DNA from: an uncultured virus (IMG/VR IMGVR_UViG_3300031659_000001)
Lineage: Duplodnaviria; Heunggongvirae; Uroviricota; Caudoviricetes
IMG/VR virus record: IMGVR_UViG_3300031659_000001
Reading direction: 5' to 3' (one strand)
Length of the DNA stretch: 36,109 nucleotides
A program made the position numbers and the translations under genes. How positions within the stretch are numbered: position 1 is the stretch's first letter; the number at the start of each line of letters is the position of its first letter. Below, piece after piece: positions 3,083 through 36,109 of this stretch. The notes beneath the pieces are model-generated. The model saw nothing but the letters and a program-made list of their open reading frames with translations, had not been told where the DNA came from and ran no database searches.

Positions 3083-3083
3083 T

Positions 3084-8111: not shown

Positions 8112-8112
8112 C

Positions 8113-14100: not shown

Positions 14101-17100
14101 GGCGAAACACCAGCCGGTATGGGTCGTGTGCTGGATTTGGAGGACATTGGACTCGTTAAAGCAAATGCTTTACCAGCAGGTATGGTTGATTCGCACCGAA
14201 CCGAGTTCGCCACTATAACAGGCACAGCCGCTAAGTTCCTAAAGTCTAAACCATTGAACAAAGGTTCAGATCCTATTATTGGTTTGAATCACCATTCCGG
14301 TGATGCTACTTTAGCCGCAGGTTCGGTTGAAGCAGTGACTCAATCCACCGCATTTGGTGGCGGAACTACATTCATACATCATAAAGGAAATAACCTTCAT
14401 CTCAACGCACACCCAGTCGATCACAAAGTGAGCAGTGGCGACCAAACCCATTTCCCAGCACACGGATGGGGACGCTCATTGGACATGAAGAACAAGAATA
14501 CAGCCGACCGAGGTGTCATGCCTATTCCTCTATCCGAAATAGCCGACCACCGACAGGTGCAATCCGACCTTTCACCTCGATTGGGTATGGTTATTGAAAC
14601 CGAAAGCGAGCGAACTACTGGAAAGAACGAAGACTATATCGTAACCAGCACCAAGGCAGTTTCACTACACAGCGATTTAGCCATTGGACAACAGTTCCCA
14701 TTGACCCCTTCTTGGGTATCGCAAACCAAGTGGACAAAGTTCGCCGGAGGCGCAACGACAGCCGCCACAGGGCCGGATGCTACTTACGGCGGCCCTCTCT
14801 CCCCTAACCAAAAATGGCAAATGCCTCAATGGTCTTTGGATAGAGAGACAAACCACGGTGCCCCTGCTAATTCCGATACCATCACTATGTTCGATGGTAA
14901 GGGTGTCTTAGACCACTGGGCTGTTCGTGGTTGCGGTGACTTACCGCCTTGGGGCGGAGTATATATTGTCCGTAAGACTTGGCTTGAGCGACCCGAAAAC
15001 AACAACAACAACCGGGCCATAATGCCATATGACGCCTCCGACTCTTTACACAGTCAAAGCCCAGTCCCAGTATCGGCAGTGGAACAACCCGTGCGTAAAA
15101 CAGCCGACTACATCATGCGTATGGTGCGACCTCTCAAGGCGTTTGGTTTCACTACCCGTAAAGACTGGGATGACACAGACCAATTCACACAGGATGGATG
15201 GTTGTTGGGTGCTTACTCAACGGTTACATCGTCGGGCCATGGGCACCAGCCTTTCACCCGTGACAAACGATACGGTATGTTTGAAATGAACCAATCTAAG
15301 ATGCCCGGAACGATTGAACCAATTGGTTCTCGAAGCGATACTGCGCCTACAATGGAATGGCCGGATGCCAACGAGCGTGATGTTACATGGCACTTGATAC
15401 CAAGCGCAAACATGCTTCAACACTTCAAGTCGGATGCTTCAAGACGAGATGGTGAGGGTAGATTGGTTCCATCTGTAGATCCACGCTATTCCCAAAGCAC
15501 CCATCCGGGTGGCAAAGGGGTTGTTTCGCAAACCCAAACAAGTTTCACCGCTACTACAACAGCGATATTAGACCCTTACAACAGGCGTGGTGCAGATCAA
15601 GATGTTGTCAAAGCACAGGCTGACTTGGCGATGACTACACTTGGGCCGAAGCAATTGATTTCTATTGATGGGGGAACATACATCACAGTGGCCGATGCAA
15701 CAGTATTCCCTGCAACGGGAACATTGGTGATTATTGGTTTGACAGGACAATTAACCTACAACGCAAGAACCGAAAGCAGACTTACTATTTCAGCCAGCAC
15801 AGGTGAGTGTTCGAGTATCGCTGACCTTGCAGGGAGAAACATTTACTTTGGTAAGAATGGTGCCACTGTCGCCGCTACGGTAGCGAACATCTACCCTTCT
15901 AAGCACTCTCTTGTTGTCTTGCCTTCATTGGTGGACAATGCTGTCTCCGTCGGCCTTTCATTATCCGATAAATGGGATGCTACGGACAGTGGTGATACCA
16001 AGACATTCTCCCCTAATATGGGCTATCGAGGCATTGGGCACTACGACCCATCGGATTTCCGAATGCTGACTCCCCAGCGTTTCGTGCTAAACGACGGAGC
16101 AAAGGAAGGTGTCATTTCATATGTCAAGAGGCCGGGAACAGGTGGGTTGAACAAAATATATGTCGATGGAAGGGAACTTTCTAAGGCAAACCACCCTCCT
16201 TATTTGCTCGATTCTATCAATAAGAAGTGGCGCATCGCTGGTGCTGATGTCATCTCCGGTGAAGGCAATTGGCAAGAGAACCTATTGAAGTTCCGAAACA
16301 TCAACGGCGAGTCCCTTAGTGGCGGCGGTATGTCTTTGGGTGGCACTGTTCGATTAGGGCACTACATGGCAGTTGGTGTGAGATCCACCGACGCCTCTTT
16401 GATGTTGCTTGACGACATCGGCCAGTCAATACCGGGTGCTGACCTCCTGCCGTATGAAACAGCAAATGAGCCGACAATGGTTGATGACGCAATCTACTCT
16501 TACCCATCAGCGTCAAACATAGGATATTACCTACAAGCCAATAACAAGGTTTCGCAATCCGCTATGGTTAATGCCCACCCCTCCCTTTCATCGACCATTG
16601 AACATAGTAGTGTTTTCGTGAGCAGGGACGCAAGAGGTATTGGAGTTCTCGATACAATGCGTGGGTTTTCGCAAATGGATGGACGACAAATGCTGATGGA
16701 TGATACAGGAAGAATCATCTATTCGGGTGAGGTCTTCCTTGGCCGAGAACAACGCATTGGTTCATCCAGTGGCCCTCAAATGGTAGAGGTTTCTTCTATG
16801 TTGGAGATGGCAAACCATGTAATTGTCGAAGGTGATAGGATAGCCGAAAACGAAACAATCCGAGCCGAGGTCAAAGACCTTGAAAAAGCCAAGTTAATGG
16901 GCGGAAAGGGCAACGAAGAGGGTGTCCTTCGCACTTTACTTCAACAGGTTCCGGGTGTGAAGGAAAGGGCACTGGCTTTGAAAATGGCGAAACAATTTAT
17001 GAATCGAACCGAGCAAGGTTCCGCTATGATTAGGGTTACTGGACTCGTTAAAGCAAGTCATTTACAACCGGGTGAAATCATCGGAGTGGACTTTGTTAAT

Positions 17101-17697
17101 GAAGGCATCAAGGGCCAATATGCTGTGTTTGAAGTCACCAACCACAGCACTGGTGGCACGACTGATATAGTAATTGGACAGTATGAGAAGGGTATTGAGG
17201 GGCTTCTTGCCGACATGCTCACATCAACAGCCAGCAACAGCGAAGAAGACCCAACACGCCTAAAGGATCGTATTGAAATGTCCTTAAGTGGGTCAGTTCG
17301 TTTGGTCGCCGCCAGCCGTGTGAGAACACGGATTGTCAATAATACCCGTTTCATCATTGGTGGTCGCTGGCGAGGCTCACCTACAAACAGCCAATTGGGT
17401 TCTATTGGAGTGCAAGGTGGTGCTACTGGTGTTATCAAGAACGGTGCAATCAACGCCAATGCTACAACCGCTATCGCCGTCGATGGTGTGGATGCAACCC
17501 TCCGCTTCGGCGCAAACGACCTACTCTATACACTGGCTGGTTTGTATGTTGGGCGTGTTCAATCCGTCACCGCTACCGGCATTACGCTGACAGCAAATAA
17601 CATCGTTGCCATAGCCGACAACCTCCAATTAAGGGTAAAGTCAAAGAGGGCCGACCCAGTGGGTCATTCTAAGTCCGTGTTCTACGAGGTGAGATAA
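8113..17697 (+). CDS. Giant tail/baseplate protein (3194 aa) with repeated beta modules and a C-terminal baseplate-hub-like domain
   Basis: Start moved to the ATG at 8113, 1 nt after the upstream TAA. Gly/Thr/Ser/Asn-rich. About 8 copies of a 'GD.I....G..(I/V)G.(I/V)' module. Hub-like C-terminal motifs ANHVIVEG and LQPGEIIGVDF...GQYAVFEV. Confidence 0.75.
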   Translation: MADVLTFAKQEYPAARRPIGSDDGIPASGYFSLHFTYPDTAYEDPTVMTFAKAGTNQLGINYMIRTPLAGDSTNAAADGEDARNGTNTIVIDLKRAAVAHAAAISAGAVMPAKTFDLGTEEATRLIAATINSTRNRQIGAHSKSRYLRARYVKMSGSKQYGGWGTETGGGHLKQGFLNGQDIGGGSSSYLRVNQSVSPAGYAAGSTHEIRVDGTGATNAPGNYLTPGENIYTVANDFVGKILEIDGRTIRFYEPIACALLDNDKLRGGWLRLFKFGSARERDIIGADSTTANGFNFNNMPTDIPKRGTIVGNPNSTLNDASNQDVGTYTLTYDGWQIVSDTSIQFNITKAETTAAGGVKDITDSTTTDADQPTWFVQNDTTEQHTVVVSWEIDAPTGGGYWGTANGGPIVQGLGASLPVWYMTAKPMDGGNLGLPATNAESRGAVPATHTTGHGYSRFSIEGLNSCSLPDMPPPDKPFDGPSITGSTEADPFQWTGLNTALNAHQEDELLITKGEFGTRMDDAGPFETNCMISTNANITGGKIIKTLTPATNISAHFDDGDSIFSADGTAIGTIAANGISGLTSTELSVIGPKTVDSGVTISTAFGSTVNGVPPRGGSRVYSTGSTYPWYHGSGGLSTIMTGGAAPDSFFNLGDEVMNASNGLIGTVPKARLVRRFAPGQHNDGCLINTGDSNPISSAANLDIINIQVDQIDPNLIYHVGEKIYSQDTFYNTGVSIQQGQNAAEEATPMLMTIPSFGGGIDPASAGQNGARIQAGDHIFLLVSNVMTLVGVAESAMDGEIALTGNNLIAVAPNDVLYVYGYIGTIKTIQETQHTISVSGYAARSFGTGVSVVDFSANNSSDFRGKIIAGSTIKAGSNLIGVVSSVGERQITFVANIATAVTTTTQMTVIGNTTWNIELEAKLDYGNSRSYVNDITNAGDQYLVLSNNSSIMGESLTNKSMTFADSTGLLPGVTSEQLALEERLYTPGVNWNQGVNNRASLGLQASDWKYTSTHFEDSSRWLLVKSTAGKKTTDMETYGGVGLLNYNDVDSGNPATLVDANGKVYGTITSALDERAVTFQGTTYTYSRLKLASLVADIPEGTILHRVEPTLTLVANITQTLRHGQMLFKGKGLNKWQIALENGHVINSRFPKLKNAYADQHEEITSLTNADTTLNTAQNVVLNKAVIKNGLKSEVSTITASTAANIGSQGYVHRPFRTIRSVNSERVKGLAIPNEARVWENIPVTDDTGAELILEGGSPFGTVIKDYDYKQNRIDPKTNTASSLPSTPGSGIEPNLEIQMPSQDEIPGNILVRSGHDRVQAWKHLSWGMGGLSPPRPDEPGVIEANTDPYDTNAGEATQFDTNDRVLHFHPVRILHDTLTSQFGLSLNNTPGAVASGSTRLFAAHRLSDHAERGSVLPETQNGAVQSTNIHAHHRIRFGRQGHHFVSPSTIRGTPQSLRRQLHRSHGSAYSLMFEAESENKHFGFQSAHGDNDSNTFFLDTLEVKSSSNNTGSFSADGLPHAEIENNALPNHERFYGSAPNDGYDMLFAPGQEHTLTEGAKEQVHFVSGVQGIEVSNFGGYGNAGSSAAVALELASTRTVGHRHNAGEEFAINGFFLNQYLLMGGRPLPSLRTLQHERSGVDPHAYTYNGHPAGWHQPRVGTELATVPPLFAHDPDMVNASATPVAIIESPTATAHFTQVSAHNDLALVKASDTNSGATPDAFLCTWLAEYSHPALFGTSREHYMTFRYRSAGMPKAVDNPAVRGLMLRNATQSGAQTTGTPKKAMAFERLYAFQWLQNFGYNGLNAGGHGANWGTRAASSVLMGHTTLREPHGTLELRPNFLMRGYGRRYSRGEGIGDGLNPYKLVSRTILDKDADDNGVWNEITTVMNPMVAVDWSRRLPVRAWGFRTGSDALNMLAGDPAETLTTQQKIQASGRFDGGVHDTMNTLPVGSDWQTLSAYTGVERSVPIGFVVSEHTNEGHDLEGFSRLSNEAWTKGETPAGMGRVLDLEDIGLVKANALPAGMVDSHRTEFATITGTAAKFLKSKPLNKGSDPIIGLNHHSGDATLAAGSVEAVTQSTAFGGGTTFIHHKGNNLHLNAHPVDHKVSSGDQTHFPAHGWGRSLDMKNKNTADRGVMPIPLSEIADHRQVQSDLSPRLGMVIETESERTTGKNEDYIVTSTKAVSLHSDLAIGQQFPLTPSWVSQTKWTKFAGGATTAATGPDATYGGPLSPNQKWQMPQWSLDRETNHGAPANSDTITMFDGKGVLDHWAVRGCGDLPPWGGVYIVRKTWLERPENNNNNRAIMPYDASDSLHSQSPVPVSAVEQPVRKTADYIMRMVRPLKAFGFTTRKDWDDTDQFTQDGWLLGAYSTVTSSGHGHQPFTRDKRYGMFEMNQSKMPGTIEPIGSRSDTAPTMEWPDANERDVTWHLIPSANMLQHFKSDASRRDGEGRLVPSVDPRYSQSTHPGGKGVVSQTQTSFTATTTAILDPYNRRGADQDVVKAQADLAMTTLGPKQLISIDGGTYITVADATVFPATGTLVIIGLTGQLTYNARTESRLTISASTGECSSIADLAGRNIYFGKNGATVAATVANIYPSKHSLVVLPSLVDNAVSVGLSLSDKWDATDSGDTKTFSPNMGYRGIGHYDPSDFRMLTPQRFVLNDGAKEGVISYVKRPGTGGLNKIYVDGRELSKANHPPYLLDSINKKWRIAGADVISGEGNWQENLLKFRNINGESLSGGGMSLGGTVRLGHYMAVGVRSTDASLMLLDDIGQSIPGADLLPYETANEPTMVDDAIYSYPSASNIGYYLQANNKVSQSAMVNAHPSLSSTIEHSSVFVSRDARGIGVLDTMRGFSQMDGRQMLMDDTGRIIYSGEVFLGREQRIGSSSGPQMVEVSSMLEMANHVIVEGDRIAENETIRAEVKDLEKAKLMGGKGNEEGVLRTLLQQVPGVKERALALKMAKQFMNRTEQGSAMIRVTGLVKASHLQPGEIIGVDFVNEGIKGQYAVFEVTNHSTGGTTDIVIGQYEKGIEGLLADMLTSTASNSEEDPTRLKDRIEMSLSGSVRLVAASRVRTRIVNNTRFIIGGRWRGSPTNSQLGSIGVQGGATGVIKNGAINANATTAIAVDGVDATLRFGANDLLYTLAGLYVGRVQSVTATGITLTANNIVAIADNLQLRVKSKRADPVGHSKSVFYEVR

Positions 17698-19169: not shown

Positions 19170-19406
19170 GTGGTTAATCACTATCGTAATAAGGTGACAC
19201 AGGACTGTCCGGGTTGTAAAACCGGCGTTCTCGCAATACGCATAAACGGGTTTTATGCTGGAAGTAGGGAAAGGATATTCTTATGGGAATGTCCTGCGTG
19301 CGGTGAACTATGGCGGAACGCACGACCGATGTTGAAAGGCGTGCCGCCGATGTTGGATTCGGTGTCCTCAAAGGAAAGTTCCAAGGATATTCAAAAAATA
19401 ACTTAG
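19170..19406 (+). CDS. Small Zn-ribbon protein
   Basis: GTG start 1 nt after the upstream TAA. CPGC...WECPACG Zn ribbon. The last 97 nt overlap the next ORF. Confidence 0.6.
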   Translation: MVNHYRNKVTQDCPGCKTGVLAIRINGFYAGSRERIFLWECPACGELWRNARPMLKGVPPMLDSVSSKESSKDIQKIT

Positions 19407-19585
19407 AGGGTCGTGCTGAACGACAGTCTAAGAAACGCTCATGGAGTGTTTCTCGTAAGAACAAAACAAAACGCACAGCAAACCGCTACAAACGGGCTAA
19501 ACTTCGTGGTAGTGGTTCGGGGGCAAGACCTAAAATGCGCCGTTCATTAGGTGCAGGTGGGACAAGACCAGCGAGGGATCGATGA
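19310..19585 (+). CDS. Highly basic Arg/Lys-rich small protein, possibly DNA-condensing
   Basis: 91 aa. GGTGA Shine-Dalgarno-like motif just upstream of the ATG. C-terminal half is dominated by R/K/G/S. ATGA coupling to the next ORF. Confidence 0.6.
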   Translation: MAERTTDVERRAADVGFGVLKGKFQGYSKNNLEGRAERQSKKRSWSVSRKNKTKRTANRYKRAKLRGSGSGARPKMRRSLGAGGTRPARDR

Positions 19586-19668
19586 TGTTAGGTATATTTT
19601 ATGCCTTTCTCATGGTGACGGGTGTTTTCATTCTGTATGAGTTTTTGGCCGTAGATGAGAGGCGTTAG
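19582..19668 (+). CDS. 28-aa single-transmembrane microprotein (not in the ORF track)
   Basis: Translated by hand: MMLGIFYAFLMVTGVFILYEFLAVDERR*. ATGA overlap with the upstream stop, and it ends 3 nt before the methyltransferase ATG. Confidence 0.55.
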   Translation: MMLGIFYAFLMVTGVFILYEFLAVDERR

Positions 19669-19671
19669 GTT

Positions 19672-21012
19672 ATGAGGGACAATGCCTTCGACCAAGCGTG
19701 GACGATCATGAAGGGTATTGTTTTTGATGGTAAGCACTATGAAGACATTGATGAATTAGACCCTCAAATCCTCGAAATACTAAGGCTTTTCAACGAGAAT
19801 AATAAAGAAAACCCATTACCACAACCCCCGTTCCAAGCAAAAGGGCGTGAAGGAAAACCATTCAAGGCTATGAGAGATGCCCGTTTAGACGGTATCGATC
19901 ACCAACCTATTTTTGATTCTATGAGAGGGTTCACAGATCCGGAAAACAGTATGCTTTCTACCTTTATGAATTGGGAGGGAGGCAAAACAAGTGAGATGCC
20001 AAAGTTCCGCAACATGGCCTCACAATTGGGTTCACGGGGTCGCCCTGTCGAACCAATGACAGGCAGTGGGTCTTTCGTGCTGGGTATGAATAGGGGCAGT
20101 GGCTTGATGAACGACATGAACCCCGATATTGTAAATGTCCACCGTCAAGCAAAGGCTGGTCTTGGTGATGTTGCTATTCCTCAATCGCAAGAAGCACATA
20201 ACGCCGCTATGGATGCCATGAATACTATTCGTGAAAGACGAGATGTGGATGGAGAGGAATTGTCAGATCAAGACCTTCGTGAACTCGCCCAGCATTTCGT
20301 GGGCAACAACCTATCCTCCTTCCGCACAGACTGGCGAGGTGCCGACTGGGATGGTCGCACCGAAACCAACGCAAAGGGCAAACAAGTCCCTATCGGCGGC
20401 TTCGATGCAGATTACGCCACAGCCTATACAGAAGGTCGCTACCCACACCAAAAATGGCGTGACAATAATGCAGAAGTCAATAGATTACATGCGTTAAGAG
20501 AAGCGCAGGGTTCGACAGCAGGGTTCACGAATGCTGAAAAGAAAAAGGTAGGGAACTGGCGTGCATTCCCACATCATGCTGGTTCGCTTAACCTCGATGC
20601 TTACGCTTCCCGCTACAAAGGAGTGGACATACGAGAAGGTGATGCCTTTGACCTCAACGATCAATTACGACCGGATGATTTGTTGTATTTAGATCCTCCA
20701 TATATTGGCCGTGATATGGATTATGGGGCAACAACCCTACAACAACAAGGAAGAACCTATGACGACTTCCAAAGAAAAATACTACAAATGGGTAGAGAGC
20801 ATGAAGGGCCATCTATCCTTTCAAATTACATGTATGCAAAAGATAAGCACCAGCCCTTAGATAGATACATCAAGGATGCTATGGATTCGGGCTACACGCT
20901 CTACCCTTGGCTACGCAAACCAAAAGCCAACAAGTTCCCCCAAGTAGAAATGTTTGGATTGAAAGGATTGAAAAATCCTCTCCCTTCTTCGGCACAAAGG
21001 ACTCTCTTCTAA
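19672..21012 (+). CDS. dam: DNA adenine methyltransferase, Dam/D12 family, with an N-terminal extension
   Basis: Motif X FMNWEGGK, motif I VEPMTGSGS, NDMN, motif IV LYLDPPY, SILSN. Dam-like hairpin TNAKGKQVPIG. Target specificity is not established. Confidence 0.8.
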   Translation: MRDNAFDQAWTIMKGIVFDGKHYEDIDELDPQILEILRLFNENNKENPLPQPPFQAKGREGKPFKAMRDARLDGIDHQPIFDSMRGFTDPENSMLSTFMNWEGGKTSEMPKFRNMASQLGSRGRPVEPMTGSGSFVLGMNRGSGLMNDMNPDIVNVHRQAKAGLGDVAIPQSQEAHNAAMDAMNTIRERRDVDGEELSDQDLRELAQHFVGNNLSSFRTDWRGADWDGRTETNAKGKQVPIGGFDADYATAYTEGRYPHQKWRDNNAEVNRLHALREAQGSTAGFTNAEKKKVGNWRAFPHHAGSLNLDAYASRYKGVDIREGDAFDLNDQLRPDDLLYLDPPYIGRDMDYGATTLQQQGRTYDDFQRKILQMGREHEGPSILSNYMYAKDKHQPLDRYIKDAMDSGYTLYPWLRKPKANKFPQVEMFGLKGLKNPLPSSAQRTLF

Positions 21013-21226: not shown

Positions 21227-21775
21227 CTATTCCTCTTCGGTGGTATGCCACGAAACATCAGCATACGCTTTTTTTCCTGTCTTGGTGTCAAGGAAGCGAA
21301 CTCGCCTCTCCTTTCTCACCTTAATGAATAGATCGTGACTTAACCTTGCATCCTCAATAGCCCAGCGAGCAACCTTGATGTGCTGACCTTTGACCCAAGA
21401 CATGGTTTTGCGTAGTCGGGAAATGATTTCGATGGGTAGTGTTCTCACGCCATTCCATCGAGCGAGGTCATACAAGTCGAATCTCTTACCTTCGTTTTGA
21501 AGGACAGGGGCACTTACCTTCTTTACCTCTCTCAAGAGGTCAAATGCACCCTTACGGAACTCACCGTGCAAGTTATGGCCCACTAAGTCTGTCAAAGACG
21601 ACCAATCAAAAGACGCCAGATCCCTCATTTCGCAATTGAGACTTTTCTCACTCATGGATATGTCGGTATAGACAATGGGTTTCTTTCCATCCCATGTGGC
21701 AATCAGTATGATGTCCATGTCACTACGCCAGCCTTCCTCAAAGTTCGTGTCGAACATCACAGCAACGCCTTTCAT
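21227..21775 (-). CDS. RNase H-fold (DnaQ/YprB-like) 3'-5' exonuclease homolog, probably degenerate
   Basis: LVGHN...FDL (ExoII-like) and WAIEDARLSHDLF (ExoIII-like). ExoI reads VMFDT instead of DxE. Start moved to 21775. Confidence 0.6.
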   Translation of the reverse strand: MKGVAVMFDTNFEEGWRSDMDIILIATWDGKKPIVYTDISMSEKSLNCEMRDLASFDWSSLTDLVGHNLHGEFRKGAFDLLREVKKVSAPVLQNEGKRFDLYDLARWNGVRTLPIEIISRLRKTMSWVKGQHIKVARWAIEDARLSHDLFIKVRKERRVRFLDTKTGKKAYADVSWHTTEEE

Positions 21776-21776
21776 A

Positions 21777-23315
21777 TTAGCCACCCCATGAGAAGGAAAC
21801 ATAATTCCTACCGCCCTTTCCTTGCTTGACGATTTCCACCGAACCGCCCTTTGTCAAGGCATTGAAGCGTCGTTGGGCTGTGATGTCAGCCACCGATTGC
21901 TGGGCGGCATATACCTTGAGTAGTTCGGATTGCATAACACGCTCAATACCGTCCTTCTCGCTGGTATATCGCTTGCACATGGTCTGTGCCTTAGACCACG
22001 AAGCACGCTCGGCTGTGACCTTTTTCTTATCCTTGACAGATTCCTTCTGTTCAAGCCAAATGGTGAGGTTATGGAGATTGTCGAAAATGATTTCGCTTGC
22101 CATCATCACATGATCCTCGGTGATTTCTGTTTCCTGCATGAGAACAGCGATTAGGTTTGAGAAAATCATAGTGTAGTTCTCAATGTTGGGTAGGAACGAC
22201 AGGGCTGTTTCACGCACCGCTTCACTGGCTATGTTGTTCACCAGCCCGTAGTAGTCATCAACGGCGTTAAGGATGGCAGGATGATACCCTGCTGATACCG
22301 TGAAAATGTCGTGTGCGTGGCGCATAGCGGCTTGTTCCCTCTCCCCTTCGGGAATACGGTTCCACACTTCGTCACGCTCTATACGGCGTTCCTCTATCTC
22401 CCCTTCGGCGTTACGGATTTCAACGGTTTCCCATGTAATGCCCATAGCGTCAAAGAGTCGGTTCTTCATCACATCGACACAGCCTGTTATGTATTCAGCG
22501 AGAATGTCGTAATCCATGATATTTTCATTTGTTTGCACATACGCCCCTGCAACACGGTGTTCGCTGGTGGTTTGGCGTTGTTCCGCCGTAATGTCGTTTT
22601 GGAATAAGAATACACGCTGGAAGAAACCCTTGTCTAAGACATGCGCCATGATGTCTTTAGGAGGATAGGTAGTCATCCATAGGGAAACACCCGATGGAGT
22701 CCTTACATCGCCTCCTACAAGGTGCTTAACGAGGACATTGGTTCGTGAGCCGAGTGGTGCCATCGCTTGTTGGAGGTATAGGATTTTGTCGGAGAAGTGT
22801 GACTTTGAGTCATTGAGTAGTATTGACGCCTCGTCAAAGAGAAGCGTCTTGTAGCCGTTTAGAAGGCCGGGAACGGTTATGTGGTTGGTTTCACCCGTTG
22901 GACGCCCGTTGTCGTCCATTACAGGCTCGGACAGGACTGTTCCGATGAGTTTAGCATCCGAACCAGCAGTGAAGGTGTCGCTCTCGACATTACATGCCTC
23001 AAGCAAGCGGTCGGTGAACTCCCATGCGATTGACTTTCCAGTCCTTGATTGTTGGATCCAGTATGTGTGAACCCGACAGTCGATGTAAGTGCCGTGAATA
23101 GGTATTCGCATGAACGGGGCACATAACTGACCCATGACGAAAAAGAACGACAACAGACCAGCATATTCATTGAAGAAAGAAACGGTATTGAACCGTTCAA
23201 TATAACCACGAATGAATTGTGAACCTTCATGGTCGCTATTCACGACCATATAGTCGTCCCACTGCCTTTGTTGCGCCATTAAGTTGTTCATGTCGCTGTT
23301 TATTGATACTGTCAT
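21777..23315 (-). CDS. AAA+ P-loop helicase (divergent MCM/YfjI-like) with a probable C-terminal winged helix; candidate replicative helicase
   Basis: Walker A QSRTGKS, Walker B LLFDEAS, arginine-finger-like GFFQRVF. Sits in the replication block. Confidence 0.7.
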   Translation of the reverse strand: MTVSINSDMNNLMAQQRQWDDYMVVNSDHEGSQFIRGYIERFNTVSFFNEYAGLLSFFFVMGQLCAPFMRIPIHGTYIDCRVHTYWIQQSRTGKSIAWEFTDRLLEACNVESDTFTAGSDAKLIGTVLSEPVMDDNGRPTGETNHITVPGLLNGYKTLLFDEASILLNDSKSHFSDKILYLQQAMAPLGSRTNVLVKHLVGGDVRTPSGVSLWMTTYPPKDIMAHVLDKGFFQRVFLFQNDITAEQRQTTSEHRVAGAYVQTNENIMDYDILAEYITGCVDVMKNRLFDAMGITWETVEIRNAEGEIEERRIERDEVWNRIPEGEREQAAMRHAHDIFTVSAGYHPAILNAVDDYYGLVNNIASEAVRETALSFLPNIENYTMIFSNLIAVLMQETEITEDHVMMASEIIFDNLHNLTIWLEQKESVKDKKKVTAERASWSKAQTMCKRYTSEKDGIERVMQSELLKVYAAQQSVADITAQRRFNALTKGGSVEIVKQGKGGRNYVSFSWGG

Positions 23316-23365
23316 GGTTCTCTCTCCGTTGGAATTGTGCCTATCGCTATCCCCTATATCAACAC
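23316..23365 (-). promoter_or_regulatory. Possible archaeal TATA-type promoter and RBS for the helicase
   Basis: One of the few intergenic gaps. The minus strand reads gtgTTGATATAggg...GGAGAG...ATG. Confidence 0.3.
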
Positions 23366-24073
23366 TTAGGCATTGGTGATTTTAATTCTCTCTTTCACCA
23401 CAGGGGACTCACTATTTAATGCCTCTACGATGCCCTTAGCACGCACTTTTCCGATCCCTTCAAGTTTCATAAGTTCGTTTGCACTTGCGCCAGCAATTTC
23501 AGTAATAGAGCCGAATGACTTTAGCAAACGCTTGGCGATTGCCTCACTACATCCTAAACCCCTAAGAGCATCAATACGCATGTCTTCGCTCGATGTGCGG
23601 CGCAGTGTGCGATATGTGCTGATACTACCCAGCGTGCCATCCTTCTCACATCTCTTCACGATCCAGTAGGCGGCGGCGGAGGGTGTAGGGAATTGCATAA
23701 CTGTCAAATCAAAATCCACATCAAGGCGAGCCAAGGAACCTAAGAATTGGGCCTGTATGCGAGCGAAGGGGGTTCTGTTGCCTCTTCGCTTCAAACGAGC
23801 CACATAGGCGTCCAGTTTGCCATGAATGACGAGGATGTTACGGTTGTAGTTCTCGTCCATGTTTTCCAATTGGTGGGCAAGGTGCCCGCTTTGGAGGGAT
23901 TGCATGTAGTCATCAATGGTCTTGGCTTCTATGCCCAATTGACCGTAGCAGTAGTCTGTGATGAGATTTTGGTTCACTTCCCACTTGATACCGGCCTTAT
24001 CAGCCTTCTCTTTAACAGCCGCTTCAAGACCAGATCGTTCCCGATTGTCGATATAGAGGATTTTTTCAACCAT
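23366..24073 (-). CDS. ERCC4/XPF (Hef-like) structure-specific nuclease with a tandem HhH domain
   Basis: IDNRE, DY...GIEAKTIDDYMQS...GHL..QL. C-terminal LRGLGCSEAIAKRLL and LEGIGKVRA HhH motifs. Confidence 0.85.
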   Translation of the reverse strand: MVEKILYIDNRERSGLEAAVKEKADKAGIKWEVNQNLITDYCYGQLGIEAKTIDDYMQSLQSGHLAHQLENMDENYNRNILVIHGKLDAYVARLKRRGNRTPFARIQAQFLGSLARLDVDFDLTVMQFPTPSAAAYWIVKRCEKDGTLGSISTYRTLRRTSSEDMRIDALRGLGCSEAIAKRLLKSFGSITEIAGASANELMKLEGIGKVRAKGIVEALNSESPVVKERIKITNA

Positions 24074-24301
24074 CTATTCCACCTTCATAATTTCGGGATA
24101 TGTCTTTCGGAGACTCATAAAACAAGCATGACAAAGTGAGTGATTAGGATGCACTAACTTCACTCCCCTTGTGCATCCTCGGCACTTGTGTTTTTCTTTG
24201 TCATAATGAGTTCTTCCAGTCTTGCCCGGTTGAGAAGGTCGGTAACGAGCAGTGCCCATTTTGGGTCGGCGGTCATCGCCACTATTTGGCCTTGTTGGCA
24301 T
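24074..24301 (-). CDS. Small basic C4 Zn-finger protein overlapping the upstream gene; start uncertain
   Basis: CRGC...CHAC. Its stop directly abuts the ERCC4 ATG, filling an otherwise empty gap of about 86 nt. Confidence 0.5.
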   Translation of the reverse strand: MPTRPNSGDDRRPKMGTARYRPSQPGKTGRTHYDKEKHKCRGCTRGVKLVHPNHSLCHACFMSLRKTYPEIMKVE

Positions 24302-24489
24302 ACCTCAAAGGCACCCTCCATTTCTTCGCTCACACGAAATCCCCAGTCGGGTTCGTCAATATCGAAATCAGCCCAAGTAAATTGGTTCTGCATGGCACGA
24401 ACTTCGTCTACATCCTTTTCCATATTCTTTATTTTCGCTTGCATTTCTGCCACTTTTTTGGCTCGTATTTTTTCTATGTCTTCGCTCAT
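24160..24489 (-). CDS. Hypothetical protein with an N-terminal coiled helix
   Basis: 109 aa, ATGA-coupled, GGAGATG RBS. N-terminus MSEDIEKIRAKKVAEMQ. Confidence 0.65.
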   Translation of the reverse strand: MSEDIEKIRAKKVAEMQAKIKNMEKDVDEVRAMQNQFTWADFDIDEPDWGFRVSEEMEGAFEVCQQGQIVAMTADPKWALLVTDLLNRARLEELIMTKKNTSAEDAQGE

Positions 24490-24740
24490 TCAATCATCTC
24501 CGTTTGTTCCGCTTCACACCGTTTGCAGTGTATTTTACCCTCAAATTGAGGTTTATGGACTAATGGTTTTTTACATTTTATTCGGATCGGTTCCAATGGT
24601 AAGTGGACAAATACAGTAACCTCACACTTTTCATTACTACAAACGAAATTAGAAACAATGCCCTCGCCATCTAAGCCCCAGTCCTCGAAAGAATCGTCGC
24701 CTCCCCAAATGAGTTCTTCATTACAGTGCCAGCACTTCAT
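24486..24740 (-). CDS. Small Zn-binding protein (CWHC...LIWGGD type)
   Basis: 84 aa. CWHC...CSNEKC plus a second C..H..CKRC cluster. ATGA coupling at both ends, GAGGTGA RBS. Confidence 0.7.
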   Translation of the reverse strand: MKCWHCNEELIWGGDDSFEDWGLDGEGIVSNFVCSNEKCEVTVFVHLPLEPIRIKCKKPLVHKPQFEGKIHCKRCEAEQTEMIE

Positions 24741-24859
24741 TCCTCTTCACCTCGTTTGTCGGGGGTTTGTCCAACCATACATCGGACACATTTTCGGAAG
24801 CCACTTCGTGCTAAATTGTGGCACTTTCTATCTACACATATTCTTGCTGTTAATCTCAT
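24737..24859 (-). CDS. 40-aa C4 Zn-finger microprotein (not in the ORF track)
   Basis: Translated by hand: MRLTARICVDRKCHNLARSGFRKCVRCMVGQTPDKRGEEE*. GGAGATG RBS and ATGA overlap with the next gene. Confidence 0.65.
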   Translation of the reverse strand: MRLTARICVDRKCHNLARSGFRKCVRCMVGQTPDKRGEEE

Positions 24860-24883
24860 TGTTTTTCATCTCCGGTTTTCATT

Positions 24884-24943
24884 TTCCAATTGGAATGCTT
24901 TTTGGGTTTTATCAATTGAATAATCAATTTCTCAATTGAGAAA
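24884..24943. repeat. AT-rich intergenic cluster of CAATTG-centred palindromes
   Basis: TTCCAATTGGAA (24884-24895), TCAATTGA (24912-24919), TCAATT (24924-24929) and a perfect 16-bp TTTCTCAATTGAGAAA (24928-24943). Confidence 0.75.
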
Positions 24944-24944
24944 A

Positions 24945-26009
24945 TCATATTCCACCACTCCTATCATAGAAGGGACAACGCCCGATGCAATACCCTTTTT
25001 CAAGCAGGGTTTTACACGAAGGTGTCTTGTAGTATTTGTCCACATTGTGGCTGATGTATGATTTTGTGATGTCGGCTTTGTAGTCCGACCATTGAAGATC
25101 CTCGATGAAAGCGACTATTGTCTCTTTTATGCTACGGTTGGTGACTGGTGACGAACGAGGGGGTCGGGCGAATGAACGGAGTCTGTCGCCCAAATACATG
25201 GCGAGATACACTCTCGCTTCGTGCGTTGGGTTGCTACCCTTCTCACAGGCGGCTGACGCCAAGCATGGGAGGACGGTGATGTTCCCGACCTTTTTCATGT
25301 CCACATCGACAGGATCTGCCTCAAATGGGGCGGCTGGGTCACGCTTCTTTGTTTTGATTTCCATACCTTGTTCGCCGTATGGAACCATACCACCGTGCGG
25401 TTCATCGGCCTTTGCTATGACTGATGCCCACCCATTATCAATGTCCTCCGTCGTTAGTGGCATACCCCACAGCCCACGCTTGAAATTGTATGTATTAGGA
25501 ATGCGAATGTGACGGTCGGGTCGGAATGAAACCACTGGATCAAGTGTGGATAAGTCCCACTTCTTGACCCATGAGTCAATCATTTTGCGACCAGTGAGTA
25601 AGAAGTCACCGAGTTCAACAGAAGTAGGTGAGTATGTTTTGTCGAGGCTCACCCAAATATGGACACCGCCTCCGGTGAACCACATGGCGTGTCGCCAGCC
25701 GTTCGCCACAAGGTGCTGGTGCAGTGTAGAGACTTCTGTGAAGCACCTATCTCCCGCTTGGGCATATGAAACACCTTCTTTCATGGCTCGTTCATAGTCC
25801 ATGTCGATGACGAAATGAGGGATCACAGCAGTATTGTATTCACCACGGTTCCCTTTCGTCTTCAATTGACGGAACCCATAGACGGTGGTGGTGAGGTCAT
25901 CGGCACCGTTGGTGGCGGCTACATAGCGTTGGAGTTCCTCCATGTTATGCACTACCTTACGCTTACGCATATCCACTTCACGGGGGAAATGTCGGAACAT
26001 GTGCGTCAT
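24945..26009 (-). CDS. Archaeo-eukaryotic primase, PriS catalytic domain fused to a PriL C-terminal Fe-S domain
   Basis: FVIDMD (DxD), FTGGGVH, RHIRIPNT. C-terminal LPC...THEAR...PSCKTL...GYCIGRC. Start moved to 26009 (GGAGTGA RBS). Confidence 0.85.
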   Translation of the reverse strand: MTHMFRHFPREVDMRKRKVVHNMEELQRYVAATNGADDLTTTVYGFRQLKTKGNRGEYNTAVIPHFVIDMDYERAMKEGVSYAQAGDRCFTEVSTLHQHLVANGWRHAMWFTGGGVHIWVSLDKTYSPTSVELGDFLLTGRKMIDSWVKKWDLSTLDPVVSFRPDRHIRIPNTYNFKRGLWGMPLTTEDIDNGWASVIAKADEPHGGMVPYGEQGMEIKTKKRDPAAPFEADPVDVDMKKVGNITVLPCLASAACEKGSNPTHEARVYLAMYLGDRLRSFARPPRSSPVTNRSIKETIVAFIEDLQWSDYKADITKSYISHNVDKYYKTPSCKTLLEKGYCIGRCPFYDRSGGI

Positions 26010-26014
26010 AATAG

Positions 26015-26956
26015 TCACTCCAAATGTGTTTGATAGCGTGGACAGAACTCTTTGACAGCGCACCACGGGTCGCATATCGAGTATTGGCGGAAGGGAGGGA
26101 TAAGAGGAAACATACTGATTTCCCCATCACCCTTGTATTTCTTGTGCATACGGACGAGGTTTTGCATATCAACCATCATCAAGCCCAGTTCTTTGACACG
26201 AACTGCCTCCACTAAGCGGAACATTTCAGCGTTTTCTGTGTCGGTGTCCTTCACCCCTTTCGTGTGATCCCAACCCCAGTGGGTAATTGGTGTCAAAGGC
26301 TCGGCCTTTCGCAACAACCACACATAGAATGCCATTTCCTTACGCATAGCCTCGTATTTGTATGGGGACTCTTTCCAAGCCCCTGTCTTGAGTTCGTGTA
26401 TGTGAAGAGAGCCGTCGGGGTTGCTATATATTCGGTCAATGAACCCAACAAAGTGGATGCGCTGTGCCACACCATCAACGGTTATTTCGACAACAGTGTC
26501 CACCTCCTTTTCATTACCAGTCGGCAAGAAATTGTCGGGTTGGCTGTTGTTGAATCGCTCTACCTCCTTCACACGGTAGCGGTCAATATGCAAGTCTTCA
26601 TCCAAATAGAAAGAATCCTGCCCCGAACGGATTTCCGATGAAGAAGGGAAACATTCACGGAAATAGCCATCTAGATCCTCCGATTCAGTAGCCTTCTCGA
26701 TGTCCACCCTTTGATAGAAGCCTTCAACGGCGTCGTGGACATTGGTTCCTCGTAGCATGTTGTCGTTCTGTGGCTCCTTCATGCCTATAATCCGCTTGAT
26801 TGCGTATTGTTGAGAGCAAAAGGTAGATTCTCCCAGTGACGATTTAGTCATACGGAGAATGATATTGTCGGGCATACCGGGGTGCCAATCGTAGCAAGAG
26901 AACAAATCCTCATGGTTTGCCACAGGGTATGGGCGAGGTGCTTTATGGGTTATCAT
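26015..26956 (-). CDS. Cas4/AddB-like PD-(D/E)XK nuclease with Fe-S cysteines (stand-alone)
   Basis: KSSL...FC, RGTNVH, GFIDRI, IHELKTG, EMAFY, CDPWC...FCP. Start moved to 26956 (TAATG coupling, AAGGAG RBS). Confidence 0.85.
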   Translation of the reverse strand: MITHKAPRPYPVANHEDLFSCYDWHPGMPDNIILRMTKSSLGESTFCSQQYAIKRIIGMKEPQNDNMLRGTNVHDAVEGFYQRVDIEKATESEDLDGYFRECFPSSSEIRSGQDSFYLDEDLHIDRYRVKEVERFNNSQPDNFLPTGNEKEVDTVVEITVDGVAQRIHFVGFIDRIYSNPDGSLHIHELKTGAWKESPYKYEAMRKEMAFYVWLLRKAEPLTPITHWGWDHTKGVKDTDTENAEMFRLVEAVRVKELGLMMVDMQNLVRMHKKYKGDGEISMFPLIPPFRQYSICDPWCAVKEFCPRYQTHLE

Positions 26957-27915: not shown

Positions 27916-27918
27916 ATT

Positions 27919-30213
27919 TTACCACCACTCTTGGGGGGTTGCCCCGTCGGCTGTCAGTTCTCGCCAGCCCATAGCCTCGAAAATGAGACTGACCGGAGCG
28001 ATTATCTGTTTCTGTATAACCGTTGTGTAATCAATGTCAAGGGCTTCGAGTTCTTCATCTGTTCGGAACGCCTCGATCCCTCTTGTAGTATAGACATGGG
28101 GGACACCATCACCCTTCTCAAAGCGGTTGTCGGGGTTGCGGCGGTTGTAGTCTTTAGCGGCTCCTTGAAACCCACCTTGTTGTCCATATGATTCGGCCTT
28201 CTTACCGAGCCTAGATCTCATAACAAGAGACTCTCGCTTCACTAAAGTTCGCACAGCCCTTATCCAATTATTCATCATGTCCCTTATGTCTTCCTCCGTG
28301 GCATTTTCACGACATAGTGATTCAAAGGCTGTTTCTTGAATGTGTTTAGTGAGCCATGCGGCATTTGACTTCTTCATCTCAAAGCCAGTGCAGTGGAGTG
28401 CTTCTCTCGGCCAAGTGACCCAGCCAAAGTTTCTGTTCTTTTTGGCGGCAACCCATGACGACATCAGTTTCTCATATTCAACGACGAAACGCTCGGAGTC
28501 GAACTCCTTCTGTATCTTTCGTGTCAAAGCGTCGGCAATCTCTTCACCGTCGTCATCGCCAATTCCTATGTATGCACTGTCGGTGTGTCCTGCGAGTGGC
28601 TCGTAGCCCATCTCTTCGCACACATCCATGAGTCGTGAAACCAATGAACGCCCGACATAGGTGATAGTGGCGGCAACGGTTCTGTGTGCTTCACCATGAC
28701 CTGTGTGTCCCATGAGGCCATAGACCGATGCGGCGGCTCTCTTGAATGCTAATTGTAGTGTGTTGAAGCCAGCATGTTCCGAAGTTCCTGCTTCGTGCTT
28801 CTTCATCTCGGCCTTAGCGGCGTTGCGAGCATCAGCAAGATCCATCTGCAATTGTGGCAATACCCCTATGCTCTCTTGACTCCAAAATGTCCCGTTGCCA
28901 ACAGCACGGATATTCTCTCCCGCTTCGTGACGAAGCATTTCGGGACTGATATTGTCAGCACGCTGGATTTCAGCATACATGGCACGGTAATCGAAGACGG
29001 CTACATTGTTATGGCGGCCAGTCTTTGGCTCGGCCACGAAACCACCACCGTATGAATCTCCTTTTCCTTTGTTGTATAATCCTGTTGGCGAAGCCCACGA
29101 AGCCCTACGGCGTAGTAAGCCCCTTGCGAACCGACTTACGGTGAACACGGAACCAAATGAAACCCCACACACACGCTGTAAAGCCATGAAGAATCGGGTG
29201 ACATGGTATTCCCTGTCGAGTCGATCAGTGAGTATAACATCGGCTCTATGGTATTTCAAGAAGTCATCGAAGTGATTCAACCATAGATCGTGGTGAGTAA
29301 TCCCATTAGTGTCTATTTTCCACAGTTCGGGACTATCGGGGAATGCTACCTTTCCAACAGCACCAAGTCGGCGGTCGGACAATTGGCCGTTGCCACTGTC
29401 TCTCCACACACGCTCAAAGCCGTGGTTCCTGTCTGCCAAATCAACAGTCATTCGACCCGGTATTACTTGAGAACCATCCTCATAAACCCCACTTCGTGGG
29501 AGGTGGGTCATTGGCGGCGAACTGCTGACATCACTAAGAGGCGACATCCAATCGAAGCCAATGTAGTGGTGCTTGTAGCGTTCATACATTTTCGGCCAGT
29601 CGGCACGGTTGCCCGACCATGTAGTAATGAGGTCGGGATCCAGCGTTTTGAACGCATCGGCAAATGACAATAGCATCTCCCTCTCGGAACGAAATGCACC
29701 TAATCCTTCATGTGTCGGGTGCCAAGACCACTGTCGAACTACCTCACCGTCTGTGGTGAAGCCCATAGCGGTGAGTTCACCCTCTTCATTCCATTCAAGG
29801 TCAAAGCCACCAGCCCGAACCATGTTCGGAAACCAGTCGGGCATGTCCTTTGGATTGATATTGTCAATAGCAAAGCGGTCGGGAAAGTGAATGTCAGCCT
29901 CCCATGTTTCGTCGCAAAGGTCACGCATACCTTTCACAGAACTGGGTGATGGAGCAACAATAGAAAGTAGTTCACGGCCTTCGGGTAATTCCTCGGTCGG
30001 GAGAGATATACTGGTCTTCTCACCAGCATACCATCCACGGAAGCGTTCATCGAACATTTCCGTAATTCGTGACATGTCACTGTCGGCGGCGACATAGAAG
30101 TAAGGTCGGTAATCCGACACATAGTTCTCCATCACATTCCCGTCTTCATCACGGTAGCGAAGGTAGATCGATGGACATTCCTGTTCGTCTGTTTCGTAAG
30201 TGGCAATAATCAT
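27919..30213 (-). CDS. polB: Family B DNA polymerase with a proofreading domain
   Basis: ExoI FDLE, ExoII WSGNRADW, ExoIII YHRAD, YGGG. Polymerase motifs A FDYRAMY, B KRAAASVYG, C AGHTDS, then KKNR and GFEMKK. Confidence 0.92.
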   Translation of the reverse strand: MIIATYETDEQECPSIYLRYRDEDGNVMENYVSDYRPYFYVAADSDMSRITEMFDERFRGWYAGEKTSISLPTEELPEGRELLSIVAPSPSSVKGMRDLCDETWEADIHFPDRFAIDNINPKDMPDWFPNMVRAGGFDLEWNEEGELTAMGFTTDGEVVRQWSWHPTHEGLGAFRSEREMLLSFADAFKTLDPDLITTWSGNRADWPKMYERYKHHYIGFDWMSPLSDVSSSPPMTHLPRSGVYEDGSQVIPGRMTVDLADRNHGFERVWRDSGNGQLSDRRLGAVGKVAFPDSPELWKIDTNGITHHDLWLNHFDDFLKYHRADVILTDRLDREYHVTRFFMALQRVCGVSFGSVFTVSRFARGLLRRRASWASPTGLYNKGKGDSYGGGFVAEPKTGRHNNVAVFDYRAMYAEIQRADNISPEMLRHEAGENIRAVGNGTFWSQESIGVLPQLQMDLADARNAAKAEMKKHEAGTSEHAGFNTLQLAFKRAAASVYGLMGHTGHGEAHRTVAATITYVGRSLVSRLMDVCEEMGYEPLAGHTDSAYIGIGDDDGEEIADALTRKIQKEFDSERFVVEYEKLMSSWVAAKKNRNFGWVTWPREALHCTGFEMKKSNAAWLTKHIQETAFESLCRENATEEDIRDMMNNWIRAVRTLVKRESLVMRSRLGKKAESYGQQGGFQGAAKDYNRRNPDNRFEKGDGVPHVYTTRGIEAFRTDEELEALDIDYTTVIQKQIIAPVSLIFEAMGWRELTADGATPQEWW

Positions 30214-31007
30214 TGAGAACCCTCGGCTTCTTCTTGCCGGGGTGCAATAACTGTGTGCGTTCCAAAATCACCATCGGGTGATTCGTGGCGTATTAGCAGG
30301 GGGCTGTCGTTGCCTCCGTGCAAGTGGATTGTCCCATTTCCCGGCATAGCCTTGAGAGCATCCATAAGCCACTTTCCAAACCAATTTAGAGTAATGTCGT
30401 CTTCATCAGCGACACTGCTCTCTTGGGGTTCAAGTGTAGATTCCATGCGTATTTGATCACGCTTGACACTTAGTGTCAAACCAGCGACATTCGCTTCAAG
30501 GCAATAGAGCGCACCGCTTTGGATGGCCTTACCTGTATTGCGTAATTGCTGGAACTCCGATGAATCGAAGGCCATATGAAAACCAAAATTAGCCGAACCA
30601 AAAGCCATCCAATCGGATGCTTCACTTTCCTCAATCATGGCTACAACAGCCGAAACACCAGCCTGTGATGAAGCAGTGTTCACTGTTGGCATAGAGAACT
30701 TTGCATTAGAACCAATGACTTGGATCATGTTATCCTCACTTACCTGTAATTCCACTTCTTCGTTTCCTGCACCGCATTCGCTGATGAGGGATGTAAAGGT
30801 CTTCAATTGTCCCAGTGGTATTTCGCCTTCTACGAGGCATTCTTCGCCCTCACGGTAGTTTGTCCACCGTGTGATGAAGTAAGCCTTCTCAAGCGTTCCT
30901 GCCGCAACAAGACCCTCTTCCGTGACAGTGACGACTAAATCGTCCATGCCGTCGAAAGCCTTGAGGAAACCGAGCAGGTTGTGTTGAAGCATACGGAACC
31001 CACTCAA
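30210..31007 (-). CDS. pcna: PCNA-like sliding clamp
   Basis: 265 aa, acidic. C-terminal WLMDALK...SPLLIR...VIAPR matches the PCNA end. Adjacent to polB. TTG start overlaps the upstream stop. Confidence 0.75.
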   Translation of the reverse strand: MSGFRMLQHNLLGFLKAFDGMDDLVVTVTEEGLVAAGTLEKAYFITRWTNYREGEECLVEGEIPLGQLKTFTSLISECGAGNEEVELQVSEDNMIQVIGSNAKFSMPTVNTASSQAGVSAVVAMIEESEASDWMAFGSANFGFHMAFDSSEFQQLRNTGKAIQSGALYCLEANVAGLTLSVKRDQIRMESTLEPQESSVADEDDITLNWFGKWLMDALKAMPGNGTIHLHGGNDSPLLIRHESPDGDFGTHTVIAPRQEEAEGSQ

Positions 31008-33851: not shown

Positions 33852-33856
33852 ATATT

Positions 33857-36108: not shown

Positions 36109-36109
36109 G

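Follow-up and report, generated by a model that had tools for sequence, protein, structure and literature searches.

The 36,109-nucleotide viral record IMGVR_UViG_3300031659_000001 (hereafter the window, i.e., the whole stretch of DNA analyzed) carries on its + strand, at positions 19672..21012, a gene whose sequence and predicted fold mark it as an intact, active-looking, alpha-type member of the Dam family (D12) of N6-adenine DNA methyltransferases, encoded by a magrovirus. The 446-residue protein ends in a short peptide of the type that binds sliding clamps, and near its N-terminus carries a ten-residue tag, AFDQAWTIMK, that recurs on many unrelated proteins of related viruses. The best overall explanation, which we consider probable, is a viral methylase tethered to PCNA and equipped with a portable address or docking tag. 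Of the components, the tag system is more unusual than the methylase itself. Magroviruses are described as ~100-kb tailed viruses of marine group II (Poseidoniales) that encode chaperonins, a prohead protease and most of a replisome (PMC5434244), and the gene set of the window matches that report.

The frame comprises 446 codons, with reading beginning at the first ATG downstream of a stop. The protein matched PF02086 (D12 N6-adenine methyltransferase) with an E value of 2e-11 (44.6 bits; cut-off, 22) and phrog_56, "DNA methyltransferase," with an E value of 1.7e-15. A search of 5.8 billion proteins yielded 20 further relatives with 36-84% identity, and the alignment of the resulting 21-member family is used throughout. 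Motif X (NWEGGKT, residues 100-106; 19969..19989), which could be aligned to DpnM and Dam, has W101, G103, G104, K105 and T106 invariant. The same is true of E127, G131, S132, S134 and F135 in motif I, the S-adenosylmethionine-binding loop (VEPMTGSGSF, residues 126-135; 20047..20076), and of D341, P342 and Y344 in the catalytic motif IV (DPPY, residues 341-344; 20692..20703), where P343 is nearly invariant. The order of these elements, i.e., X, I, recognition region, DPPY, is the alpha order. The family profile matched DpnM by sequence (E = 1e-8), and an AlphaFold2 model built from the alignment (mean predicted local distance difference test [pLDDT] 82.6, predicted TM-score 0.85) returned E. 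coli Dam, DpnM, T4 Dam and McbE1 as its top Foldseek matches, with E values from 2e-8 to 2e-5 and TM-scores, normalized to the target, of 0.57-0.67. The original prediction of a Dam-like methyltransferase, which had been made from the window alone, is therefore upheld by the PF02086 match, by the invariant motifs X, I and DPPY and by the fold match to Dam, DpnM and T4 Dam. With the established enzymes of the family (E. coli Dam, DpnM/M.DpnIIA and T4 Dam) the viral protein shares the alpha motif order, the catalytic and S-adenosylmethionine-binding residues and the fold, although its identity to the solved members is 11-16%. E. coli Dam, DpnM and T4 Dam are GATC-specific enzymes, and by analogy with these nearest solved relatives the viral methylase possibly also has GATC as its target.

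The last five residues of the methylase, QRTLF-COOH (residues 442-446; 20995..21009, + strand), likely constitute a conserved clamp-binding peptide, judging from their sequence and from the model. Archaeal PCNA-interacting protein (PIP) motifs are positioned at the very C-terminus (PMC6881253), and Sulfolobus PolB1 binds PCNA2 via the peptide QLTLF, a form resembling the bacterial QL[SD]LF (PMC3504372). A Q-x-x-L motif followed by an aromatic residue stands at the extreme C-terminus in 20 of the 21 members of the methylase family, down to 36% identity. Its form is the short Q-x-x-L-[FWY] in 12 and a canonical PIP box, i.e., Q-x-x-L-x-x-aromatic-aromatic, in five (examples are QENLNKYF, QQNLDRFF and QSTLKKWL), while three are intermediate. 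Residues 438-446 of the model have pLDDT values below 50 and are predicted to be disordered. The resemblance of QRTLF to a clamp-binding peptide, noted in the original prediction, thus extends to nearly the whole family. A second virus record (G001) is 100% identical to positions 21675-36109 of the window over 14,435 nucleotides and extends 49.9 kb further, and we joined the two into an 86-kb composite of the virus's own genome; the longest contig on record for the methylase protein is 106,442 nucleotides. Among the ~97 ORFs (open reading frames) of the 86-kb composite, the methylase alone has a Q-x-x-L-aromatic tail of this type.

The proposed partner of the tail is the viral sliding clamp, encoded at 30210..31007 on the - strand. 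Its AlphaFold2 model (pLDDT 90.3) gave archaeal and eukaryotic PCNAs as the top Foldseek matches (E ~1e-14, TM-scores 0.65-0.80); a profile of the clamp found archaeal PCNAs among the PDB sequences at E ~0.5 only, and its assignment as a PCNA rests on the fold search. When a complex of the clamp with residues 396-446 of the methylase was predicted, the scores were 0.33, 0.22 and 0.01 (mark 0.32), a result that speaks neither for nor against binding. The viral tail and the PIP/QL[SD]LF peptides, such as that of Sulfolobus PolB1, have in common the Q-x-x-L-aromatic motif at a disordered, extreme C-terminus, and a clamp of PCNA fold is encoded in the same viral genome. The difference from the known PIP clients lies in the carrier, here a viral adenine methylase whose clamp binding is proposed. 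Human DNMT1 is a DNA methylase bound to PCNA (PMC6881253). If the tail of the viral enzyme does bind the clamp, replication-coupled methylation, represented in eukaryotes by DNMT1, would also have evolved in an archaeal virus. No archaeal or viral methylase with a clamp-type tail was found in the literature searched, the review PMC3504372 contains neither "methyltransferase" nor "methylase," and within that literature a tail of this type on an adenine methylase of an archaeal virus appears to be undescribed. Also in line with a clamp-binding tail, a hydrophobic-aromatic pair closes the viral PolB (27919-30213, - strand) or its homologue in each of the four genomes compared (EWW, EWW, ALW and PLF). 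Several further proteins encoded on the replication strand have acidic-aromatic ends (ELW, EWI).

The tag occupies residues 5-14 of the methylase (19684..19713, + strand), where it scores 30.9 bits against a position-specific scoring matrix (PSSM) built from the tags described below, and its final residue, K14, is invariant in the family alignment. Its consensus, A-F-D-x-A-W-x-h-h-K (h, hydrophobic), is amphipathic, with an F-x3-W-x-h-h spacing; residues 1-13 of the methylase model have pLDDT values below 50, with no packing of the tag against the enzyme. The pattern [AP]F..AW..[LMIV]K occurs once within the window, in the methylase itself. In 25 related viral loci, a regular-expression pass revealed numerous small ORFs, unrelated to one another, that begin with the tag, and a 24-nucleotide degenerate pattern for M-T-A-F-D-x-A-W was found in 89 IMG/VR stretches, often three to six times per 8 kb; the number of matches expected by chance was estimated at one to three. 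For counting, we used the motif.F..[AGS]W...K and 115 sequences comprising 1.02 Mb of related viral DNA. The motif occurred in 350 distinct ORFs, in 320 of them no more than seven codons from a start, whereas the reversed motif gave 5 in total and 2 close to a start, and a scrambled motif 10 and 4. The pattern with which the loci were fetched misses 205 of the 320, and the abundance of the tag is therefore not an artefact of ascertainment. In the logo of the tag (M 68%, T 59%, A 70%, F, D 73%, [KRQT], A 95%, W, x, [LIV] 92%, [VLAM], K), the regular expression fixes only F, W, K and the [AGS] column, the other columns being free. The exact M-x-A-F spacing is present in 229 of the 320, and the information content falls to ~0.2 bit per position right after the lysine.

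Synonymous codons within the tags vary freely: phenylalanine is encoded by TTC in 124 and TTT in 103, lysine by AAA in 138 and AAG in 89, and all four alanine codons are used. Upstream of the tags, the only nucleotide conservation is a G-rich, Shine-Dalgarno-like run at -12 to -8. The freedom at synonymous sites indicates that selection on the tag acts at the level of the peptide, and we rejected a nucleotide-level element, i.e., a promoter, a signal for leaderless translation or a recombination box, on the grounds that synonymous sites vary and only the ribosome-binding-like run is conserved. When the tag was stripped from the 320 proteins, the remainders fell into 159 BLAST clusters, of which 106 were singletons. 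The tag is a portable module on proteins that are mostly orphans and unrelated to one another. The statement in the original prediction that similar leaders occur on unrelated ORFs of marine archaeal viruses was therefore correct. The tail of the methylase does not travel with the tag: the tail pattern matched 10 of the 320 tagged ORFs, and because nine of these are relatives of the methylase, we assign the tail to the methylase and not to the tag family.

Scanning the 86-kb composite with a PSSM derived from the 320 tags gave 19 sites scoring at least 12 bits, compared with none after shuffling. All 19 are on the + strand and lie in 18 ORFs including the methylase, so that 18 matches are in 17 other ORFs of the same virus; although the leader occurs only once in the window, it is not unique to this protein, and uniqueness would have counted against the original prediction. 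Tags numbered 15-18 in the related genome G003, four in G004 and two to five in G002, while the reversed DNA pattern gave 0, 0, 0 and 1. In the four genomes, 13 of 13, 17 of 18, 4 of 4 and 2 of 2 tagged ORFs are on the strand of the terminase and portal genes. In addition to the tags, 62 of the 89 loci fetched with the degenerate pattern encode some protein homologous, in its body, to a protein of this virus. The ten residues, present on 17 other ORFs, make an entire class of orphans recognizable from sequence in viruses that are among the most abundant archaeal viruses of the surface ocean, and most of whose genes are orphans. On the + strand at 2938-12141 of G001 (53.9-63.1 kb of the composite), 12-13 tagged ORFs follow one another in tandem and overlap; about half of them have a W-to-F variant of the tag, and an HMGL-like gene precedes this array.

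The position of the tag is not always N-terminal. In the virus's own genome, G004 and G002, a conserved ORF that directly precedes the head genes carries it near residue 147, and it is also found at the extreme C-terminus of a 389-residue ORF of the virus's own genome and of the counterpart in G004. The ORFs with internal or C-terminal tags identified by the PSSM scan are at 76273-77946 and 66449-67618 of the composite and at 75468-77108 and 85848-86270 of G004. Of the 350 copies in the count set, 24 have no nearby start codon. Within the methylase family, the tag falls in the first 15 residues in 16 of the 21 members, and the long forms have an additional N-terminal domain with the tag at its tip.

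When 596 Gb of prokaryotic genomes were scanned with the 24-nucleotide pattern, 28 isolated matches were scattered over assorted bacteria (chance estimate, ~17), and there was a single cluster of at least eight sites in ~10 kb. The cluster (L173-L180) is on a 106,262-nucleotide contig of a Poseidoniales single-cell genome, which is probably a magrovirus caught inside a host cell; the same contig also has a relative of the methylase at its end. Mimicry of an N-terminal signal of the host was rejected as an origin of the tag, since the other cellular matches are scattered single ones and the only cluster is on a virus-like contig. We found no description of the tag in the main text of three magrovirus studies (PMC5434244, PMC11706807 and PMC10160649), nor did the tag's own sequence, or "capsid targeting sequence" combined with "archaeal virus," return anything relevant in the literature searched.

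Only 8 of 123 representatives of the tagged clusters had a Pfam match. The kinds recognized were the methylase family itself, a second D12 methylase, a C5 cytosine methylase, GP88, DUF6321, two types of zinc ribbon and DUF7249/GH-E. The second D12 methylase (L053:1541-3187; E = 1.7e-7) and the C5 cytosine methylase (L034:6292-7599; E = 2.2e-5) both lack the Q-x-x-L-F tail. A further tagged family, A3 (11 members, e.g., L062:4007-4627), has the signature K-[MA]-P-x-[YF]-H-G-T...G-L-x-P, and its profile matched the RNA 2'-phosphotransferase Tpt1/KptA with an E value of 1.7e-4 and, weakly, DarT (E = 0.13). On the basis of these sequence matches, it probably has an ADP-ribosyltransferase-type fold.

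The palindrome content of the viral DNA bears on what a methylase might do for it. In the window, GTAC, AGCT, CGCG and ACGT are each absent and CTAG occurs twice, against expectations of 74-104 each, and in the 86-kb composite the same four are again absent and CTAG occurs three times (expected, 171-253). GATC occurs 91 times in the window (116 expected) and 220 times in the composite (297 expected). G002, G003 and G004 have also lost GTAC and AGCT completely and have zero to three CTAG sites, with GATC at 0.44-0.65 of expectation. The relatives differ in other palindromes, G003 retaining CGCG and ACGT, and G002 also avoiding TCGA (18 sites versus 188 expected), which suggests lineage-specific restriction repertoires of the hosts. 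The purged palindromes alongside the retained GATC show heavy restriction pressure with GATC tolerated, and give the methylase a plausible role; retention of GATC fits protection by methylation and, equally, hosts that do not cut GATC. An anti-restriction function had originally been linked also to a pattern of overlapping GATC sites, but we could find no such pattern: the 220 GATC sites in the composite are all separated from one another by more than 10 nucleotides.

In the explanation that we favor, the PIP-type tail would tether the methylase to the viral PCNA, newly made viral DNA would be methylated at the fork, and the methylation would shield the viral DNA from restriction by the host. 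The N-terminal tag would serve as a common address or docking peptide, its leading candidate destination being the procapsid, where an S78 (HK97-type) head protease might cut after the invariant lysine. A PCNA-type tail suggests that the enzyme acts at the fork, in the cell where the virus is produced, which weakens delivery into the next cell as its main role.

Several results weigh against this explanation. The Q-x-x-L-F tail is found on no other replication protein of the virus. The assignment of GATC as the target is a guess, in that the recognition region aligns only loosely to Dam and contains an 18-residue insert, and the ratios of observed to expected GATC sites (0.44-0.74) are like those of other palindromes that are not purged, so that the survival of GATC need not stem from methylation. 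Endonucleases of the DpnII/MboI family were found in none of 201 Poseidoniales genomes (M. jannaschii, the control, gave a match), other families of GATC endonucleases being outside that search; D12 methylases gave matches in 37 of the same genomes, with 18 matches being full-length at E < 1e-16. In addition, the tag is not strictly N-terminal, unlike what a simple N-terminal propeptide model predicts. Finally, since the methylase ends the replication-strand operon in 10 of 25 related loci, "late" expression is not a general property of the family.

An alternative, close to the original prediction, is that the methylase is made late, loaded by its tag into the procapsid, trimmed after Lys14 and ejected with the DNA as an anti-restriction enzyme. 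This is possible but in our judgment unlikely, and it is compatible with clamp tethering in the producing cell. In its favor, the tag is short, sharply bounded and terminated by an invariant lysine, and it is carried by more than 150 unrelated protein clusters, among them DNA methylases of three kinds (the methylase family, the D12 enzyme of L053 and the C5 enzyme of L034). The near-exclusive location of tagged ORFs on the terminase/portal strand in four genomes also favors packaging, as does the position of the methylase in the window, where it closes a packed operon containing fibre genes. A candidate protease exists: in G004 an S78 (HK97 gp4-type) protease gene stands beside that for the major capsid protein, the corresponding gene of the virus itself being outside the 86-kb composite, and the HK97 S78 protease cuts the capsid protein at K103/S104 (PMC10275583), i.e., after a lysine. 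However, nine tagged methylases are encoded on the replication strand, the PCNA-type tail argues for activity at the fork, and progeny DNA would already be methylated, so that an injected methylase would add little protection. In addition, internal and C-terminal copies of the tag occur, and the lysine is followed by alanine, serine or glycine in only ~41% of tags.

There are precedents for packaging of this kind. The capsid targeting sequences (CTSs) of phage T4, N-terminal propeptides of 10-19 residues that the head protease removes, load a variety of internal proteins, the ADP-ribosyltransferase Alt among them, and the cargo behind a CTS seems to be exchanged among T4-like phages (PMC9026906). 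Like the CTSs of IPI-III and Alt, the magrovirus tag is a short peptide common to unrelated, fast-changing proteins that include enzymes, in its case also the ADP-ribosyltransferase-like family A3, and its end residue might suit a head protease. It differs from them in sequence, in lineage and in the candidate protease (S78 and Lys, versus gp21 and Glu), as well as in having internal and C-terminal copies and far more carriers per genome. A second precedent is provided by phage P1, whose DarB protein has a methylase domain. The P1 Dar proteins are internal to the head, are co-ejected and protect the injected DNA from restriction (PMC12810830). They have no sequence relation to the viral methylase and no common tag, and their loading needs DarA/Hdf rather than a short leader.

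The two roles could also be combined, with the methylase held on PCNA by its tail while viral DNA is copied, then entering the procapsid by means of its tag together with the other tagged effectors, a numerous and fast-evolving group (methylases, ADP-ribosyltransferase-like enzymes and zinc-ribbon proteins), being released after Lys14 by the S78 protease and delivered to the next cell. We hold this sequence of events to be conceivable although rather doubtful. If it is true, the tag would represent the first capsid-targeting code of an archaeal virus, far larger than that of T4 and readable from sequence.

A different destination is proposed by the view that the tag, as a helix, docks onto a non-capsid partner such as the viral thermosome or a host protein, with the methylase as one client among many. 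The tagged proteins would then be cytoplasmic factors for host takeover or anti-defence that share control of folding, localization or turnover. The amphipathic F-x3-W-x-h-h spacing and the disorder of the tag in the model are in keeping with docking, and so is its occurrence at N-terminal, internal and C-terminal positions, as is usual for docking motifs. The cargo (ADP-ribosyltransferase-like proteins, zinc ribbons and methylases) resembles accessory effectors. A gene for a group II chaperonin, the thermosome (Cpn60_TCP1, E = 8.7e-166), abuts the tag array on the other strand, an adjacency also seen in G003, while in G002 a thermosome homologue is ~4 kb from a tagged ORF. Such adjacency is weak evidence, however, the bias toward the structural strand fits packaging at least equally well, and we know of no chaperonin system that uses a sequence tag. 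We regard a non-capsid docking role as improbable, if still worth consideration. Very improbable is the proposal that the tag is functionless, a relic of gene birth by duplication or recombination at gene starts, and QRTLF merely structural: tandem arrays of tagged ORFs, duplicated or fused-in tags in some methylases (two in tandem in P0007, an internal copy in P0020) and inversion of the methylase cassette between lineages would agree with it, but residues are held while synonymous sites are free, nucleotide conservation is limited to the G run (a recombination cassette at the DNA level would predict the reverse), the tag is kept by bodies without detectable mutual similarity, and the tail is retained in 20 of 21 relatives while drifting between accepted PIP variants.

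Besides its tail, the viral methylase of our favored explanation differs from other Dam-family enzymes in ~90 extra N-terminal residues and in two inserts in the recognition region. The former value follows from the alignment, in which motif X begins at residue 100, versus ~10 in Dam and DpnM; in DpnM and E. coli Dam, the counterparts of profile positions 94-96 are residues 6-11. The part between the tag and motif X (residues 15-99; 19714..19968, + strand) is kept across the family. When residues 1-95 were compared exhaustively, by phmmer, with 1.84 billion representative proteins, only five matched, from which we conclude that the extension is a family-specific domain and not a common module. 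Four of the five are of methylase length (393-451 residues), three of these being among the known relatives and the fourth being P0050 (405 residues), and the fifth is a protein of 146 residues. Looking up residues 1-95 in the ESM Atlas gave no usable match. The inserts, at residues 229-246 (18 residues; 20356..20409) and 270-289 (20479..20538), both on the + strand, were identified by comparison within the family alignment. They distinguish the clade of the window protein from more distant relatives, and both are placed between motif I (126-135) and DPPY (341-344). Insert 1 lies between SSFRTDW (215-221) and YTEGRY (252-257), which the profile aligns to the DpnM stretch NGLYR...PYGRYK, presumably the DNA-recognition hairpin of Dam enzymes. 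The original prediction had anticipated both features, as about 95 extra residues before motif X and as long insertions in the target-recognition region.

In the window, the - strand carries the replication block, with a family B polymerase, the clamp, an RFC-like loader, ERCC4 and PD-(D/E)XK nucleases, while the methylase is on the strand of giant fibre-like ORFs, converging on that block. In 25 related loci (L001-L025) the methylase invariably sits where the structural and replication blocks meet. Eight of these have it on the structural strand; a ninth, L024, has only a 54-residue, 100% identical C-terminal fragment, with the replication-strand markers placed as in the window. In ten loci the methylase comes last on the replication strand, with a good tag in nine of the ten, and in two to three the blocks are co-linear. 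Co-orientation with the structural genes, as originally noted, thus describes the window correctly but is not a property of the family. A search of the window for inverted repeats flanking the methylase, which might mark an invertible cassette, gave only three pairs of 13-14 nucleotides that look like chance occurrences.

The methylase closes a packed chain on the + strand that contains, overlapping or nearly abutting, a 376-codon ORF, a zinc-ribbon ORF, a basic ORF of 91 codons and a hydrophobic ORF of 28 codons, and its cotranscription with the fibre genes is probable. Three consecutive giant ORFs on the same strand (461-3082, 3045-8111 and 8032-17697) have 873, 1688 and 3221 codons; the first two contain Laminin_G_3 or concanavalin-like domains and are presumably fibres or adhesins. 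The basic 91-residue ORF (19310..19585, + strand) is a conserved neighbor of the methylase, being present in 21 of the 25 related loci. It has a degenerate tag (VGFGVLKGKFQGY), followed by KGKFQGY and an extremely Lys/Arg-rich tail, and may be a DNA-binding internal protein; the motif GKF[RQ]GY recurs at the ends of other tagged ORFs. The start of the hydrophobic 28-codon mini-ORF (19582..19668, + strand) overlaps the stop of the basic ORF, and its own stop is three nucleotides before the ATG of the methylase. At the corresponding place in L004, L002 and L007 there is a hydrophobic ORF of 53-62 codons. On the replication strand, a PAPS-reductase-like gene (26956-27915, - strand; PF01507, 6e-15; phrog_424, 6e-39) between PolB and a PD-(D/E)XK nuclease may encode a DNA-modification enzyme.

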